The position numbers and the translations under genes are program-made. From assembly GCF_003334785.1 (NCBI RefSeq), contig NZ_QOWV01000001.1: 64,000 bases of DNA; one strand, written 5' to 3'. The notes under the pieces were generated by a model. It made no database searches. It saw only the letters and a program-made list of their open reading frames with translations, and was not told where the DNA came from. Of this stretch, positions 13,352-22,051 are shown piece after piece; within the stretch, counting starts at the first letter, position 1, and each line of letters starts with the position of its first letter. This stretch comes from Escherichia coli (lineage in GTDB: Bacteria; Pseudomonadota; Gammaproteobacteria; Enterobacterales; Enterobacteriaceae).

Positions 13352-14071
13352 ATGACCCTTGATTTACCTCGCCGCTTCCCCTGGCCGACGTTACTTTCGG
13401 TCTGCATTCATGGTGCTGTTGTGGCGGGTCTGCTCTATACCTCGGTACATCAGGTTATTGAACTACCTGCGCCTGCGCAGCCGATTTCTGTCACGATGGT
13501 TACGCCTGCTGATCTCGAACCGCCACAAGCCGTTCAGCCGCCACCGGAGCCGGTGGTAGAGCCAGAACCGGAACCTGAGCCGATCCCCGAACCGCCAAAA
13601 GAAGCACCGGTGGTCATTGAAAAGCCGAAGCCGAAACCTAAGCCAAAACCGAAGCCGGTGAAAAAGGTACAGGAGCAGCCAAAACGCGATGTCAAACCCG
13701 TAGAGTCGCGTCCGGCATCACCGTTTGAAAATACGGCACCGGCACGCCTGACATCAAGTACAGCAACGGCTGCAACCAGCAAGCCGGTTACCAGTGTGGC
13801 TTCAGGACCACGCGCATTAAGCCGTAATCAGCCGCAGTATCCGGCACGAGCACAGGCATTGCGCATTGAAGGGCAGGTTAAAGTTAAATTTGACGTTACG
13901 CCGGATGGTCGCGTGGATAACGTACAAATCCTCTCAGCCAAGCCTGCGAACATGTTTGAGCGTGAGGTGAAAAATGCGATGCGCAGATGGCGTTATGAGC
14001 CGGGTAAGCCAGGCAGTGGGATTGTGGTGAATATCCTGTTTAAAATTAACGGCACCACCGAAATTCAGTAA
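13352..14071 (+). CDS. tonB: Energy transducer TonB
   Basis: 239 aa from ATG 13352 (MTLDLPRRFPWPTLLSVCIHGAVVAGLLYT...), (EP)n and (KP)n proline-rich repeats, C-terminal TonB domain. Confidence 0.96.
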   Translation: MTLDLPRRFPWPTLLSVCIHGAVVAGLLYTSVHQVIELPAPAQPISVTMVTPADLEPPQAVQPPPEPVVEPEPEPEPIPEPPKEAPVVIEKPKPKPKPKPKPVKKVQEQPKRDVKPVESRPASPFENTAPARLTSSTATAATSKPVTSVASGPRALSRNQPQYPARAQALRIEGQVKVKFDVTPDGRVDNVQILSAKPANMFEREVKNAMRRWRYEPGKPGSGIVVNILFKINGTTEIQ

Positions 14072-14078
14072 GCAGAAA

Positions 14079-14108
14079 GTCAAAAGCCTCCGACCGGAGG
14101 CTTTTGAC
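14079..14108. terminator. Bidirectional rho-independent terminator between convergent tonB and yciA
   Basis: Perfect palindrome gtcaaaagcctccg/cggaggcttttgac flanked by A/T runs on both strands. Confidence 0.85.
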
Positions 14109-14110
14109 TA

Positions 14111-14509
14111 TTACTCAACAGGTAAGGCGCGAGGTTTTCCTTCAGGATCAACCGCGACATACTTAAATAATGCTTCTGTCGCTTTATAGCGTTGCCCAAT
14201 TGGTTCAGACGCTACTTTTTTCACCCACACTTCAATATTAATGCTGACCGATGTCGTCCCTTTCTGGACACAGCGTGCATAGCAGCACACCACATCGCCG
14301 ACCGCAACCGGCCGTAAGAAAGTCATTCCTTCAACCCGCACAGTCACTACGCGACCGTGGGCAATTTCTTTTGCCAGAATAGCGCCGCCAATATCCATTT
14401 GTGACATTAACCAACCACCAAAGATGTCACCATTGGCATTGGTATCGGCGGGCATGGCTAAAGTACGTAAAACAAGATCGCCCTGAGGGACGTTATGTGT
14501 TGTAGACAT
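14111..14509 (-). CDS. yciA: Acyl-CoA thioesterase YciA (hotdog fold)
   Basis: 132-aa ORF, recognised sequence and synteny. Confidence 0.92.
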   Translation of the reverse strand: MSTTHNVPQGDLVLRTLAMPADTNANGDIFGGWLMSQMDIGGAILAKEIAHGRVVTVRVEGMTFLRPVAVGDVVCCYARCVQKGTTSVSINIEVWVKKVASEPIGQRYKATEALFKYVAVDPEGKPRALPVE

Positions 14510-14613
14510 GGTAAAACCGACTTAAAAGGAAAATCACAGGCGCGATGCTACTATGATTTTCCTGAGGAGAACAGAGGAGATACAGCGCCAGCCCCGAAGG
14601 ACTGGCAGTCTGG

Positions 14614-15153
14614 TTAGGATTTATCTTCCTGCGGCATGTGGCGGTAGATATAGATACCGCTTAACAATGTGAAGATTAAGGTAAGGGCGGTCAGGCCAAA
14701 GACTTTAAAGTTGACCCAAATATTTTGCGGCAGCCAGAATGCGATGTAGATGTTTGCCAGACCGCAAAGGATAAAGAAAACAGCCCAGGCCAGATTCAGC
14801 TTCGACCATACCGGTTGCGGCAGCGTGAGTTCTTTACCCAGCATCCGCTGAATTAGCGGCTTTTTCATCACCCATTGGCTGACTAACAGGGCTCCCGCAA
14901 ATAGAGCATAAATGACTGTAACCTTCCATTTAATAAACTCATCATTGTGGAAGAACAGCGTCAAGCCACCGAAGACGACCACCAGAACAAAAGTGATCAG
15001 GGCCATCTTCTCAACCTTACGAAAGCGAACCCAGCTATAGATAAGCACAATCGCCGTGGCGACGATCAGCGCCGCAGTAGCCGCATAGATGTCATAAATC
15101 TTGTAAAACGCGAAAAAGACAACCAGCGGTAAAAAATCAAGAAACTGCTTCAT
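14614..15153 (-). CDS. yciB: Intracellular septation / inner membrane protein YciB
   Basis: 179-aa polytopic membrane ORF. Confidence 0.92.
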
Positions 15154-15182
15154 TTTACGATTCCGTAATCAAATGCTTAAGG

Positions 15183-15926
15183 TTATTGGCGAATCAACAT
15201 ATACAGGCGGAACAGATAGATGAGCAATATGGCTGAAATCAGGTTGCTCAAGGTGTTCGCCAGTACGGCACCAATTTCCGGGGTTAATGCGGCAAAAGAA
15301 GAGGCAAAAAGCAGCAACAGTGTTTTTGCCAGCAACCAGCTCAGTACTGCGGGTGCCACCAGACGCATATTCGCCCAAGTCAGCCGCATACTGCTACGCA
15401 TCGAGGCAAAAACGCCCATTTTGTCCTGTACCAACATCACCGGTGCCAGGGCCAGTAAAATGGCCATGATAATTCCCGGAACGACCACCAGCATGATGCC
15501 AATCTGTACTAAAAGGGTAGTCAGAAAAATCAGAATAAATAACTTTGGCAATATCGGCGCACTGGCACCAATAGCTCGCAGCGCACTGACTCTCTGACCC
15601 GCAGACACCAGCTGGATAATTAATATTACGCCTCCGGCGAGAATGGCGTTACCGATTAATCCTGAAAAAGTGGACGCCGCTGAAGCCTGCAGCAAAATTT
15701 GTTGCTGTTCCGGTGACATATTCTGAACCAGGTCGAACAACCCACTACTGCCGCTAACGGGCACGCCGTCATTGAGCTGCGCAAGCTGTGCATCACTGGG
15801 TGAGAAAACATGCCCTAACACCACTGTGATAAACGCACATAGCAACGATACCAACAGAATGGTCATAAATTGATTACGGAAGAAATTTCCGGTGTCACGG
15901 TATACGGACTGCGCCGTGATAGACAT
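15183..15926 (-). CDS. yciC: UPF0259 inner membrane protein YciC
   Basis: 247-aa polytopic membrane ORF. Confidence 0.9.
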
Positions 15927-16282
15927 GCACTCTCCTTGAGTTTTATGCAGGTGTTAATTAGCGGGCAATTGTACCCTGGTTAAGCCTCGGGTGGCAGCAT
16001 CAGGTCTTGTATGGAAAAGCATATCTTTGTAAAGCGGAGGTAATTGCTGGCCTTCAGGCATGGGCAAATCGCGGCAAGTGGCGACCGAGTTAATATTTGC
16101 GTAGCGAAAATATTTAAAAATTGATTTAAATCACATTAACCAGGATTCTCAATGCAACTTCTAAATTAATCCAGATCAATAAAGGGTGAATTATCATATG
16201 TAATGTGATCTATGTAGGATCATTTGTTACTCCAATGTAGGTATATTCGTCACGTTTTTATAACCATAACGACGGAGCGGAT

Positions 16283-16921
16283 ATGAAAAAGTTAACAGTG
16301 GCGGCTTTGGCAGTAACAACTCTTCTCTCTGGCAGTGCCTTTGCGCATGAAGCAGGCGAATTTTTTATGCGTGCAGGTTCTGCAACCGTACGTCCAACAG
16401 AAGGTGCTGGTGGTACGTTAGGAAGTCTGGGTGGATTCAGCGTGACCAATAACACGCAACTGGGCCTTACGTTTACTTATATGGCGACCGACAACATTGG
16501 TGTGGAATTACTGGCAGCGACGCCGTTCCGCCATAAAATCGGCACCCGGGCGACCGGCGATATTGCAACCGTTCATCATCTGCCACCAACACTGATGGCG
16601 CAGTGGTATTTTGGTGATGCCAGCAGCAAATTCCGTCCTTACGTTGGGGCAGGTATTAACTACACCACCTTCTTTGATAATGGATTTAACGATCATGGCA
16701 AAGAGGCAGGGCTTTCCGATCTCAGTCTGAAAGATTCCTGGGGAGCTGCCGGGCAGGTGGGGGTTGATTATCTGATTAACCGTGACTGGTTGGTTAACAT
16801 GTCAGTGTGGTACATGGATATCGATACCACCGCCAATTATAAGCTGGGCGGTGCACAGCAACACGATAGCGTACGCCTCGATCCGTGGGTGTTTATGTTC
16901 TCAGCAGGATATCGTTTTTAA
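16283..16921 (+). CDS. ompW: Outer membrane protein W
   Basis: 212 aa with signal peptide MKKLTVAALAVTTLLSGSAFA and beta-barrel ending ...AGYRF. Confidence 0.95.
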   Translation: MKKLTVAALAVTTLLSGSAFAHEAGEFFMRAGSATVRPTEGAGGTLGSLGGFSVTNNTQLGLTFTYMATDNIGVELLAATPFRHKIGTRATGDIATVHHLPPTLMAQWYFGDASSKFRPYVGAGINYTTFFDNGFNDHGKEAGLSDLSLKDSWGAAGQVGVDYLINRDWLVNMSVWYMDIDTTANYKLGGAQQHDSVRLDPWVFMFSAGYRF

Positions 16922-16935
16922 TTCCGCACAAAAAC

Positions 16936-16956
16936 GACCCCGTAATATACGGGGTC
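16936..16956. terminator. Hairpin between convergent ompW and yciE
   Basis: gaccccgta/tacggggtc inverted repeat 15 nt after ompW stop. Confidence 0.6.
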
Positions 16957-16980
16957 AATAAGGACATGGTATAAAGGGTA

Positions 16981-17487
16981 TTATTTCTTCGCTTCTACGC
17001 CATCAGTTTCAGAGCGAATTAAAAATTTCTCAGTTGTTTGCGGAATATTCTGAATCAGCCAGTCGGCCATTTGCTTTTCCTCATTTAAAATCGCTTCGAT
17101 GGTTGGAATTGAAGCTGTATCACCGGCATTTTTTGCTGCTGCTAATAGTGAGGTGTAACAGGCGATTTCAAATTGCTCGAAGACATATCCGCTAATAGAG
17201 CCTTTGACTATTTCATCAGAAGGGAATATACCACCGATTGACTGCCCAAGCGCAGCCATTTTACTCATGGAATCTTTAATGACTGAACGTGAAATGTCAT
17301 TACGATCAAGAATAGTTTCCAGTTGAACAATCTGGTTTTTGGTTTCACTAAGATGTTGTTCAATACGAGCGCGTAGTTCAGGATAATTATCTATACGGCT
17401 GGCCATGGATTCAAGCATAGATTCGGCTTGCTTTTCCATTGCGTGGGCGTCACGTAACCAGTCATGATAATGTTCAATACGATTCAT
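16981..17487 (-). CDS. yciE: Ferritin-like DUF892 stress protein YciE
   Basis: 168 aa; paralogous to adjacent yciF. Confidence 0.92.
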   Translation of the reverse strand: MNRIEHYHDWLRDAHAMEKQAESMLESMASRIDNYPELRARIEQHLSETKNQIVQLETILDRNDISRSVIKDSMSKMAALGQSIGGIFPSDEIVKGSISGYVFEQFEIACYTSLLAAAKNAGDTASIPTIEAILNEEKQMADWLIQNIPQTTEKFLIRSETDGVEAKK

Positions 17488-17532
17488 GAAAATGTCCTCT
17501 TTATAAAATGACTAAAAGTTAAAATTCATATT

Positions 17533-18033
17533 TCAGGCTTTATTTTCGGCTTTCTTATTTACGTTATTAATGGCCAGATCAGTCAGTTTGATGTCGGTGG
17601 CCTTTTCTTCTTCCAGGGTTTCTTTCAGAAGCTTCGCTGCTTTACGGTAACCTAATTGTTCAGCCAGCGTCGCTAATGTCCCGTAACTGGCAATCTCATA
17701 ATGCTCGACTTTCTGTGCTGCGGCAATCAGTGCGGCATCACGCACTTCGTTTTTCTCGGTACTTTCGATGACCTCATTAGCTTCTTCAATAAGACCTTCC
17801 ATTGCCACACATTTCATGCGCTTAATTTTCAGGTTCGATTCGGACTCCACAACTTGATCAATACGTTCAATCTGTCCATGAGTTTCCTCGAGGTGCGCAT
17901 GAAAAGCCTGACTTAATTTTTCATTTGATGTTGCTCTTGCGAGTTTTGCCAGTGCCCGGGTTAATTGTTTTTCTGCGCTGTAGGTATCTGAAAGCAGGTG
18001 AATAAATACATCTTCAATGGTCTTCATATTCAT
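17533..18033 (-). CDS. yciF: Ferritin-like DUF892 stress protein YciF
   Basis: 166 aa from ATG 18033 (MNMKTIEDVF...); ORF-track extension to 18081 rejected. Confidence 0.92.
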   Translation of the reverse strand: MNMKTIEDVFIHLLSDTYSAEKQLTRALAKLARATSNEKLSQAFHAHLEETHGQIERIDQVVESESNLKIKRMKCVAMEGLIEEANEVIESTEKNEVRDAALIAAAQKVEHYEIASYGTLATLAEQLGYRKAAKLLKETLEEEKATDIKLTDLAINNVNKKAENKA

Positions 18034-18118
18034 ATTTTTCTCCAGTGAAATCACTGCGAGCCATACGGCCCGCAGATGCAATTATCTTTATCAGCTGATA
18101 TTAATAATTAACGGTGAA

Positions 18119-18298
18119 TCAGGATTTGCCTGATTTATTACCACCGCTTTGTTGACCGCCTTTTTTACCCGCTTCAGATGCGCGTTGCGGATCATTTTTA
18201 AAATTACCGCCGCTATGCTGACCGCCTTTACGGCCTGCGTCGGATGCCTTCTCACGGTCTTCGGCGAAATTTCCTGAACCACCACGATGTTCGGCCAT
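18119..18298 (-). CDS. yciG: KGG-repeat stress protein YciG
   Basis: 59 aa from ATG 18298 (MAEHRGGSGNFAED...), with repeated ...SDAGRKGGQHSGGN / ...SEAGKKGGQQSGGN units. Confidence 0.88.
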   Translation of the reverse strand: MAEHRGGSGNFAEDREKASDAGRKGGQHSGGNFKNDPQRASEAGKKGGQQSGGNKSGKS

Positions 18299-18645
18299 GT
18301 TATTTCTCCCGTTGCGTTGCATTGTTTCATTAATATGAGTGTTGTGTGTCGACACTCATTAAAATTAGTCGCTAATGAGAATTAGTCAAATTAAGCGCAA
18401 CGAGAAGATAGAGGGAAAATATATTTTGAGGAACATTCTGGATATATTAACAATTACCTGAGGAATAAGTGACTTAGAGAAAATTATTGATTTTACTGGT
18501 GTTATGTTGCGGGATTAATTTGTTTGATTATATTACTGTTGGGCGGAAAAATGACGTAAGTTGACGTTCGACCGGGGTAAGCGAAACGGTAAAAAGATAA
18601 ATATTAAATGAATTTAGGATTTTTCCGGCTTCATTAAAGAAAGTT

Positions 18646-18675
18646 AAAATGCCGCCAGCGGAACTGGCGGCTGTG
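18646..18675 (-). terminator. trp operon terminator (trp t)
   Basis: Minus strand reads cagccgccagttccgctggcggcatttt directly after trpA stop. Confidence 0.85.
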
Positions 18676-18678
18676 GGA

Positions 18679-19485
18679 TTAACTGCGCGTCGCCGCTTTC
18701 ATCGGTTGTACAAAAACTTTCAGTGCCGCCAGCATTTTCTCTGGCTCATTAATATGTTGCTCGATGATTTTAACAATGGCCGAACCAGAAATCGCGCCCG
18801 CAGCTCCTGCATCAATCGCTGCTTTTACCTGATCCGGGGCGGAAATACCAAATCCCTGCAATGGAGGTGCAGCGTTGTACTCTTTCAGCTTCGCAACCAG
18901 ATGATTGAGGGGTAACGCGGCGCGGTTTTCTGCGCCGGTCACGCCTGCTCGTGACAGCAAATAGGTGTAACCACGACCGTAAGAGGCTATCTGGCGCAGC
19001 AGGTCGTCATCGGCATTTGGCGGGCAGATGAAGATAGGTGCGACATTATGACGCAACGCGGCCTGGCGGAAGGGCGCGGACTCTTCAACTGGCACATCGG
19101 CAACCAGCACCGAATCGACGCCGACTTTTTCGCACTGGGCATAAAACTCATCAATGCCTTTGTTAAACACCAGATTGGCATACATCAACAGGCCAATGGG
19201 AATGGTCGGGTGTTTCTGGCGAATCAGTGCCAGCATTTCAAAACATTGTGCCGGAGTCACACCTGCCGCAAAGGCGCGCAGAGTGGCGTTTTGAATCGTC
19301 GGGCCATCCGCCAGTGGGTCGGAGAAGGGGATACCTAACTCCAGCGCGTCAGCACCGGCTTCAATTAGCGTATCGATAATTTTCAATGACTGCTCAATGC
19401 CCGGATCACCGAGCGTGACGAAAGGAACGAATGCGCCTTCTTTGCGCTCCTTCAACTGGGCAAACAGAGATTCGTAGCGTTCCAT
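18679..19485 (-). CDS. trpA: Tryptophan synthase alpha subunit
   Basis: 268 aa [28 protein letters not shown]... Confidence 0.97.
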
Positions 19486-20678
19486 CAGATTTCCCCTCGT
19501 GCTTTCAAAATATCGTGAACGGTGAAGATGTCTTTATCGCCGCGACCGGAAAGGTTAACCACCAGTAGCTGCTCTTTATCCGGGTTTTCGCGCATCATTT
19601 TCAACGCATGGGCCAGGGCGTGGGAGGATTCCAGCGCCGGGATGATCCCTTCGTGCAGGCACAGCGTTTTGAAGGCTTCAAGGGCTTCATCATCGGTAAT
19701 AGACACGTAATCAGCGCGTCCAGTGCTGTTAAGATACGCGTGTTGTGGGCCGACAGACGGGAAATCCAGTCCGGCGGAGATGGAGTAAGATTCTTCAATC
19801 TGCCCGTCTTCGGTTTGCATCATCGGCGCTTTCATACCGAAATAGATACCCACGCGACCATGTTTTAGCGGTGCGCCGTGCTCGCCAGTTTCGATACCGT
19901 GACCACCTGGCTCCACACCAATCAGGCCGACGTTGGTTTCATTGATGAAATCAGCAAACATGCCGATGGCATTCGAACCGCCGCCAACACAGGCGATAAC
20001 GGCATCCGGCAGGCGACCTTCTCTTTCCAGAATCTGCGCTTTGGTTTCTTCGCCAATCATCCGCTGAAACTCACGCACAATGGTCGGATAAGGATGCGGG
20101 CCAGCTGCGGTGCCCAGCATATAGTGCGCGGTTTCGTAACTACCGGACCAGTCGCGCAGCGCCTCGTTACAGGCATCTTTCAGCGTCGCGGAACCGCTAT
20201 GCACCGGGATCACTTCCGCACCCATTAAGCGCATACGAAAAACGTTAGGCGACTGGCGTTCAACGTCTTTGGCACCCATATAAATACGGCATTTCAGGCC
20301 GAGCAGGGCGCTGGCAAGGGCCGACGCCACGCCATGCTGACCGGCACCGGTTTCGGCGATGATTTCGGTTTTACCCATCCGCTTCGCCAGCAACGCCTGC
20401 CCCAGCACCTGGTTAGTTTTATGCGCGCCGCCGTGCAGCAAATCTTCACGCTTGAGATACAGCGTGGTGTTCGTCCCGGCTGTAATGTTCTGGCATTTGG
20501 TCAGCGCGGTTGGACGCCCGGCATAGTTTTTCAGCAGGTCGTTGAACTGAGCCTGAAATTCAGGATCTTTTTGCGCACTGACAAAAGCTTCTTCCAGCTG
20601 GCGCAGAGCAGGCATCAGGATTTGTGGCACGTACATGCCGCCAAACTCACCAAAATAGGGGTTAAGTAATGTTGTCAT
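19485..20678 (-). CDS. trpB: Tryptophan synthase beta subunit
   Basis: 397 aa [21 protein letters not shown]...; 1-nt overlap with trpA. Confidence 0.97.
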
Positions 20679-20689
20679 TGTTCCTTTCC

Positions 20690-22051
20690 TTAATATGCGC
20701 GCAGCGTCTGGAAAACCGAGGCCAAAAGACGTGCGTCTTTGATGCCCGGTTGCGACTCTACAGCAGAATTAAAATCAAGTCCGGCGCAGCCGGTTTGTGC
20801 CGCTTCCACGCAGTTATCTGCGCCTAAGCCCCCCGCCAGCAGAACGTTGCCAAGCGATTGACCATTTAATAGTGACCAGTCAAAACGTTGCCCGCTTCCA
20901 CCCTGGCCGTTGTCTAAAACATATTTATCAACGTGCTGAAACTCGCGGGCGGGCAGGGTTTCACCGACGCTTAATGCTTTCCAGATGGCAACATGTGCTG
21001 GCAGAGCTTCACGCAGCGTATCGATATACAGCTGTTCTTCATTACCATGCAGTTGCACTGCCGCCAGCGATAACACCTTAGCTTTGTCCACCACATCGGC
21101 AATATCGTGATTGCGGAACACGCCAACATACTGCAACGGTGCCGCAGCCATCACTTCCTGCGCCTGTTCAACGTTGACGCAACGCGGTGATGTCGCAACA
21201 AAAATCAACCCACCGTAAATCGCGCCCGCGTCATAAGCTGCTTTAGCATCTTGCCCACGCGTCAGGCCACATACTTTATTCTCACCCAGCAACACCCGGC
21301 GCACGGCGGCGTGCAAATCGTCATGGGCCATCAACGCCGAACCAATCAGAAAACCGTTAGCGAAGTGGCTTAACTCGCGCACCTGAGCGTAAGTATTGAT
21401 GCCGGATTCGCTGATTACCGTCACGTTGTGCCCCAGTTTCGGCGCAAGCTCGCGGGTACGGTTGAGATCAATCGACAAATCACGCAGATCGCGGTTGTTG
21501 ATGCCAACGACCTTTGCTCCCAATGCAATGGCGCGCTCCTGTTCCTCTTCATTACTGACTTCGGTCAGCACCCCCATCTCCAGACTGTGAGCGACGGCGG
21601 CAAGCTGGCGATATTGGTCGTCATCCAGTACTGAAAGCATTAATAAGCAGGCATCGGCCTGGTAATAGCGCGCCAGATAGATCTGGTAAGGGTCGATAAT
21701 GAAGTCTTTACATAAAATCGGCTGCGGGGCGATTTGGCTGACGATGGGGAGGAAATTAAAGCTCCCCTGAAAATATTTCTCATCAGTCAGCACCGAAATT
21801 GCCGAAGCGTAATGTTTATAAATGGCGGCAATGCGTGCTGGATCGAAATCATCACGGATCACGCCTTTTGACGGCGACGCTTTCTTGCACTCCAGAATAA
21901 ACGCCGTGCGCGCACCCTGTAGCGCATCATAAAAATGTCGCGTGCTCGGCTGAACCTCATTCTGAAAACTGGCCAGCGGTTGCTGCTGTTTGCGGGCTTC
22001 TACCCAAATCGCCTTGTCTGCGACGATTTTCGCTAAAACGGTTTGCATCAT
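20690..22051 (-). CDS. trpC: Bifunctional indole-3-glycerol-phosphate synthase / phosphoribosylanthranilate isomerase
   Basis: 453 aa [26 protein letters not shown]... Confidence 0.96.

Follow-up and report, generated by a model that had tools for sequence, protein, structure and literature searches.

The yciGFE operon of Escherichia coli: an old pair of ferritin-like DUF892 paralogs beside a KGG-repeat hydrophilin

What are the three small genes that lie between ompW and trpA in a stretch of Escherichia coli DNA, how old is the likeness between two of them, and what could their products do together for the cell? A sequence-only reading of the window, by which we mean the whole stretch of 64,000 nucleotides analysed here, had named positions 16981-18298 the yciGFE stress locus. 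We are highly confident that these genes form the yciGFE operon of the E. coli chromosome, a general-stress cassette of three genes, and that the overall explanation given below, protective roles included, is the right one.

Identity and composition of the locus

In the list of open reading frames, positions 16981-18298 run exactly from the stop codon of yciE to the start codon of yciG on the minus strand (Table 1), and the ribosome-binding site of yciG is GGGAGA, 6 nt 5' of the ATG. A 1.8-kb stretch is 100% identical at the DNA level in RefSeq E. coli chromosomes, where it is annotated as yciE, yciF and yciG between ompW and trpA. The neighbourhood reads yciC, a short ykgJ-family remnant and ompW (plus strand), then yciE-yciF-yciG-trpA-trpB (minus strand). 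Over its full length, YciE matches the PDB entry 3OGH, 'Protein yciE' (E = 4e-106), as YciF does 2GS4, 'Protein yciF' (E = 1e-98); YciF also matches Salmonella YciF, 4ERU (E = 3e-87). The structure of YciF in 2GS4 is reportedly the one described by Hindupur et al. in 2006. An NCBIfam scan of YciE, YciF and YciG assigned no family, so that the RefSeq product names derive from other rules. On every point tested (BLASTP, RefSeq match, Pfam and PDB matches) the reading of these genes as the stress locus yciGFE held, and the four peptide motifs that had been quoted with it are all found in the translations. Genes, gene order, ompW and trpA flanks and proteins are the same as in yciGFE of E. coli K-12 (Beraud et al. 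2010), with no difference; the locus is the published operon and not one related to it, and as such the finding holds nothing new.

The ykgJ-family remnant is a 90-bp piece of a YkgJ-family cysteine-cluster gene (15954-16043, minus strand) between yciC and ompW, and RefSeq marks it as a pseudogene; Salmonella (L016, 405 nt) and a UPEC strain (L003, 333 nt) have the gene intact.

The earlier description of the cluster as AT-rich was confirmed by its GC profile, the locus having 42.2% G+C against 49.8% for the window, in the 3rd percentile of size-matched windows. At third codon positions the G+C fraction (GC3) is 0.34-0.41 in yciGFE versus 0.48-0.60 in ompW, trpA, trpB and yciC. Because of its glycine codons, yciG reaches 51% G+C overall, and its GC3 alone is low (0.35).

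Table 1. Features of the yciGFE locus, with positions counted along the window
Feature	Position	Strand	Description
Predicted intrinsic operon terminator	16935-16957	minus	10-bp stem with 6 G-C pairs, then TTTTTGTG; in the 59-nt spacer shared with convergent ompW
yciE	16981-17487	minus	Operon gene 3; 168 aa, DUF892 ferritin-like; open reading frame and RefSeq annotation
yciF	17533-18033	minus	Operon gene 2; 166 aa, DUF892 ferritin-like; open reading frame from the annotated ATG and RefSeq
G+C-rich RNA hairpin CTGCGGGCC-GTAT-GGCTCGCAG	18054-18075	minus	yciG-yciF spacer; 9-bp stem, about 44 nt past the yciG stop codon
yciG	18119-18298	minus	Operon gene 1; 59 aa, Gly/Lys-rich, two KGG repeats
AT-rich regulatory spacer trpA-yciG	18299-18678	minus	380 nt, 36% G+C; holds the candidate σS-type promoter
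Candidate σS-type promoter	18389-18359	minus	TTGACT (-35, 18389-18384), 16-nt spacer, C 18368, TAATTT (-10, 18367-18362), TAA
trp operon terminator hairpin	18651-18671	minus	9-bp stem with 7 G-C pairs; just 3' of trpA, at the upstream edge of the cassette

Age of the paralog pair and history of the cassette

That yciE and yciF are paralogs, as the sequence-only reading proposed and as has already been published (PMC7705038), was supported by pairwise alignment. BLASTP aligns the two proteins over 159 residues, of which 25% are identical (E = 6e-8), and their Smith-Waterman score is 102, with shuffles at 34 +/- 5.7 (z = 12; 0 of 2000 scored as high). Both match Pfam DUF892 (PF05974) over practically its whole length, YciE with E = 2e-50 (residues 5-156, model positions 4-158 of 159) and YciF with E = 5e-52 (model positions 1-158 of 159). 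In the DNA no residual signal is left: 269 of 542 aligned columns are identical, no more than in unrelated sequence.

The same reading had derived the pair from a tandem duplication, and the age of that event emerges from the relatives. We compared E. coli YciF and YciE with the pairs of Salmonella (L016), Klebsiella (L015), Pantoea (L014) and a further genome (L005). Across these genomes the F-type proteins, encoded in first position, are 62-88% identical among themselves and the E-type proteins, in second position, 55-88%, versus 24-33% between the types. The order F-type then E-type is constant in all four; a KGG gene precedes the pair in Salmonella, Klebsiella and the L005 genome, and in Pantoea none is annotated there. 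Structures in the PDB take sides as well, 3HIU with YciE (3e-32 versus 2e-4 to YciF) and 2GYQ with YciF (2e-36 versus 7e-4 to YciE). An exhaustive deep search of 1.84 billion cluster representatives (50%-identity clusters) with YciE as query found 645 proteins at E <= 1e-10; the best 150 of the 645 are 31-98% identical to YciE except for one (26%), and all of these exceed the 25% of YciF. With the same query in phmmer against the PDB, the YciF sequence (2GS4) scores E = 0.0024, a value from a far smaller set and not directly comparable with those of the deep search. The top 120 matches of YciE in a word-indexed protein search are close enterobacterial orthologs only and say nothing about the older history. 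Distant E-type homologs (40-46% identical) occur singly, with neighbours that include a KGG gene or stress genes (BON-domain, DUF883). A clean YciF-YciE fusion, which would speak for physical partnership of the two proteins, was sought among the long homologues and none was found, the long ones carrying unrelated extra regions or two E-like domains.

Taken together, these comparisons indicate that the E/F split is very old, with separate ortholog lines in the Enterobacteriaceae, the Erwiniaceae and beyond, and that the two copies have been inherited together since. Tandem duplication is thus acceptable as the ultimate origin of the pair, as long as the event is placed in the distant past, given the separate E and F ortholog lines, and not recently. 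An ancient, co-inherited pair argues against simple redundancy, and the adjacent F-then-E genes may encode an obligate mixed oligomer and not two redundant ferroxidases.

In the L005-L007 region (1202-3516) we also observed a triad of KGG, F-type and E-type genes whose E-type protein is 57% identical to YciE; a second KGG gene stands divergent to it and two phage-integrase-family genes adjoin. Among the records of a plasmid collection, Pantoea and Erwinia have copies of the locus on large replicons that are non-mobilizable. Several records of that collection with the locus (H78-H80 and H89) are 4.8-5.4 Mb long and are almost certainly mislabelled chromosomes. The Salmonella 'plasmid' L016, of 33.8 kb, carries the core genes yciA, yciB, yciC, ompW, narJ and narI and looks like a chromosomal fragment.

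Within E. coli the cassette is polymorphic. It is carried by 4736 of 5426 complete genomes, and in 682 the junction is empty, with trpA within ~50 nt of ompW. In the empty allele (L002 2154-2205) ompW is 88% identical, with a different 3' end and a 15-nt insertion near it, trpA is 95.7% identical, and a hairpin related to the trp terminator is retained at the same position. Strain ATCC 25922 (L004) has a 313-bp deletion (18005-18317) that takes yciG and the first codons of yciF and keeps the regulatory spacer; its yciF is annotated shorter, at 483 nt. Some cassette-less genomes, such as UPEC-455U/190220 (L003 131-8951), have the end of a lambdoid prophage (tail tip J, Lom, tail fibre) and a VapA/VapB-family gene at the ompW site, and in L003 a frameshifted ompW fragment alone is left beside trpA.

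This patchiness, together with an AT-rich composition, a GC3 that is low relative to the neighbours and silencing by H-NS (PMC2907692), which is typical of foreign DNA, could be taken as signs of a horizontal islet that was gained recently, and whose genes yciE and yciF stem from a local tandem duplication that was itself recent and took place in the E. coli lineage. We regard such a history as extremely improbable, and the comparisons above have largely refuted it already. The cassette sits in the same place in Salmonella (L016), adjoining ompW, and so predates the Escherichia-Salmonella split; the within-type identities across genera far exceed those between types; and yciE and yciF have lost all similarity at the DNA level. 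In addition, an ompW only 88% identical in the cassette-less genomes fits replacement or loss there better than gain elsewhere. Since the cassette stands beside ompW in Salmonella, it is more likely to have been lost or replaced in some lineages of E. coli than to have been gained recently in the others.

Proposed functions of YciG, YciF and YciE

Biochemical function had been called poorly defined for the whole cluster. That view is partly outdated, as ferroxidase activity of YciF (in Salmonella) and enzyme protection by YciG have been published; for YciE itself the literature gives no activity.

The two internal KGG-type repeats proposed for YciG proved real by several measures. Pfam places KGG repeats (PF10685) at residues 10-30 (E = 5e-9) and 32-52 (E = 3.5e-8), and the two units of 22 residues (10-31 and 32-53) agree at 14 of 22 residues and at 42 of 66 bases, with the DNA differences mostly at third codon positions (7 of 22 match there). 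The score of one half of YciG against the other was reached by 0 of 5000 shuffles, and the repeat is visible in the DNA with a 66-nt period (repeat finder, family D2). The KGG repeats of YciG, its intrinsic disorder and its control by RpoS have been published (PMC7161692). With 23.7% glycine and a GRAVY (mean hydropathy index) of -1.67, YciG is a hydrophilin by the definition of glycine above 6% and high hydrophilicity (as quoted in PMC3983491); according to the same article's citation of Reyes et al. (2005), YciG is a hydrophilin that protected lactate dehydrogenase during drying. The KGG hydrophilins YmdF and STM1513/SEN1538 resemble YciG in their small size, their richness in glycine, their control by RpoS and the positions of their two KGG repeats, but only yciG is linked to DUF892 genes, whereas the YmdF and STM1513/SEN1538 genes stand alone (PMC7161692). 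A paper on the Acinetobacter baumannii desiccation factor DtpC mentions neither DUF892 nor KGG. In the mechanism that we propose, YciG would act as a 6-kDa intrinsically disordered hydrophilin of two KGG repeats that shields proteins during water loss.

The structures of YciE and YciF have the four-helix-bundle ferritin-like fold known from the literature (bioRxiv 10.1101/2023.01.20.524870). In YciF the metal-site residues are all present, namely E21 in helix 1, H47, E50 and Q54 in helix 2, E110 and E113 as the Glu-x-x-Glu of helix 3, and the bridging E143 in helix 4; the aligned counterparts in YciE are E18, H45, E48, Q52, E104, E107 and E137. An alignment of 12 E-type and F-type proteins shows no variation at E21, H47 and E143 and almost none at E110. 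The counterparts of Q54 and E113 in E. coli YciE, Q52 and E107, are the same amino acids, and the E113 position is K in one distant E-type relative and A in another, so that E-type proteins need not all share the same chemistry.

The YciF of Salmonella Typhimurium is an iron-binding ferroxidase that forms an oligomer of ~110-120 kDa and protects against bile-induced reactive oxygen species; the substitutions Q54A, E113Q and E143D abolish or reduce its iron binding and ferroxidase activity, the ferroxidase data coming in part from over-expression in a cspE mutant (Singh, Penmatsa and Nandi, bioRxiv 10.1101/2023.01.20.524870). YciF of the present locus is 87% identical to that protein and conserves Q54, E113 and E143, the activity itself having been measured in the Salmonella protein alone. 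From the aligned metal-site residues we infer that YciE, too, binds iron and may be a ferroxidase; because none of the residues with a demonstrated role in YciF is missing from it, this hypothesis would be cheap to test. YciF and YciE would then bind iron at their Glu/Gln/His sites and oxidise Fe(II), removing the substrate of the Fenton reaction.

Ferritin, bacterioferritin, Dps and rubrerythrin, of the ferritin-like superfamily, have in common with the YciF family a four-helix bundle, carboxylate and histidine metal ligands and ferroxidase chemistry. YciF differs from them in several respects: its complex is of ~110-120 kDa, as opposed to a cage of 12 or 24 subunits, and its metal site reportedly has only one bridging carboxylate and counts a glutamine among the ligands (bioRxiv 10.1101/2023.01.20.524870). 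No significant sequence match of YciE or YciF to ferritin, bacterioferritin, Dps or rubrerythrin was found, the nearest being a weak hit of Pfam Rubrerythrin to YciF (E = 0.011).

Other roles have been suggested for these proteins. In line with an older annotation, YciE and YciF could be structural or regulatory proteins that do not handle iron, and YciG mainly a regulator of motility and cyclic di-GMP and not a protectant. Depositors of related PDB entries named them 'putative structural protein', and EDTA left the melting temperature of YciF unchanged, which suggests that the metal is not a tightly bound cofactor (bioRxiv 10.1101/2023.01.20.524870); YciG mutants are affected in motility in some Salmonella strains (PMC7161692), and a 2026 preprint reports a different role for YciG in S. 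Paratyphi A, by way of its binding to the phosphodiesterase YhjH, seen in a two-hybrid assay. However, the carboxylate, histidine and glutamine positions of a ferritin-like di-iron site are kept in both paralog lines, and in Salmonella YciF they matter for iron binding and ferroxidase activity, as the site mutants cited above demonstrate. A manganese catalase shares the operon in other genera. The phenotypes of YciG (motility, acid tolerance and heat tolerance) are strain-dependent, and those in motility are irreproducible across strains (PMC7161692). We therefore consider such roles improbable, and favour iron oxidation by the DUF892 pair and protein protection by YciG.

The catalase gene, katN, follows yciE in Salmonella (L016 3103-3981) and in Pantoea (L014 1878-2786), where it forms the fourth gene of a yciGFE(katN) operon, in contrast to the E. 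coli form, which is without it. Here the spacer between yciE and ompW (16922-16980) is only 59 nt long and holds a good terminator; katN is therefore missing. Its position 3' of yciE in the two other genera supports a module that would combine iron sequestration, peroxide removal and protein protection. In E. coli, YciG, YciF and YciE would jointly counter damage in cells that are not growing, dried or oxidatively stressed.

Control of expression and meaning of the cassette

Promoters used by σS are characterized by a C at -13 and by TAA after the -10 hexamer. In the upstream region of yciG, the motif TTGACT-16 nt-C-TAATTT-TAA forms an island of conservation, invariant or nearly so in an alignment of E. 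coli, Salmonella and Klebsiella in which the surrounding DNA has diverged, and we propose it as the yciG promoter, its position being predicted from these features. A generic σ70 scan did not list this candidate and returned only two weak sites inside yciE, fewer than in shuffled sequences. Two adjacent imperfect direct repeats (CTCATTAAAATTAGTC and CTAATGAGAATTAGTC, 18355-18387) overlap the candidate promoter and could be a regulator site.

The dependence on RpoS that the sequence-only reading had taken from the literature is indeed documented there, at 205-, 405- and 38-fold for yciGFE in strain EDL933, with H-NS listed among the regulators (PMC2907692). In an H-NS mutant the expression of yciGFE rises 8- to 15-fold (PMC6064147); the AT-rich spacer and locus suit H-NS binding, the binding itself being a matter of the literature. 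McbR/YncC binds the yciG promoter, as PMC7705038 states in citing Beraud et al. (2010). On this published evidence, RpoS (σS) drives yciGFE, H-NS silences it and McbR/YncC counters the silencing. Transcription would begin in the AT-rich spacer 3' of trpA and end at the hairpin shared with ompW. An Rfam scan of 14000-22000 found nothing meaningful, its sole match being sroD on the trp terminator, whose 21.9 bits fall short of the gathering score, 50.

Between yciG and yciF, the hairpin of Table 1 is predicted in every fold of the spacer and is kept with compensatory changes in Salmonella (L016), in Klebsiella (L015) and in a metagenomic relative (L008, 46%-identical); as the eighth pair, E. coli, Salmonella and Klebsiella have C-G, U-G and U-A, respectively. 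A U-rich run follows it on the 3' side in Salmonella and Klebsiella and is weaker in this E. coli. A plausible role would be that of a leaky terminator or of a 3' stabiliser of a yciG-only mRNA. As a leaky terminator, the hairpin may set a high ratio of YciG to YciF and YciE.

A joint reading, in which a leaky hairpin controls this ratio, YciF and YciE work as an obligate mixed oligomer and the loss of the cassette in some lineages reflects a trade-off, is speculative, and we think it rather unlikely to hold as a whole. On the last of these parts, about 13% of complete E. coli genomes have lost the cassette cleanly and have a divergent ompW beside the site, which may be the sign of a trade-off in stress survival particular to certain lineages.

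In summary, the locus carries little weight as a discovery, since the operon, its regulation, both crystal structures and the activity of YciF have already been published. What our analysis adds is incremental: an age for the paralogy, the finding that YciE conserves the catalytic residues, a conserved promoter motif, a conserved hairpin and the polymorphism in presence and absence. This last offers a natural contrast between E. coli genomes that could be used to study survival in stationary phase, on desiccation or in bile.
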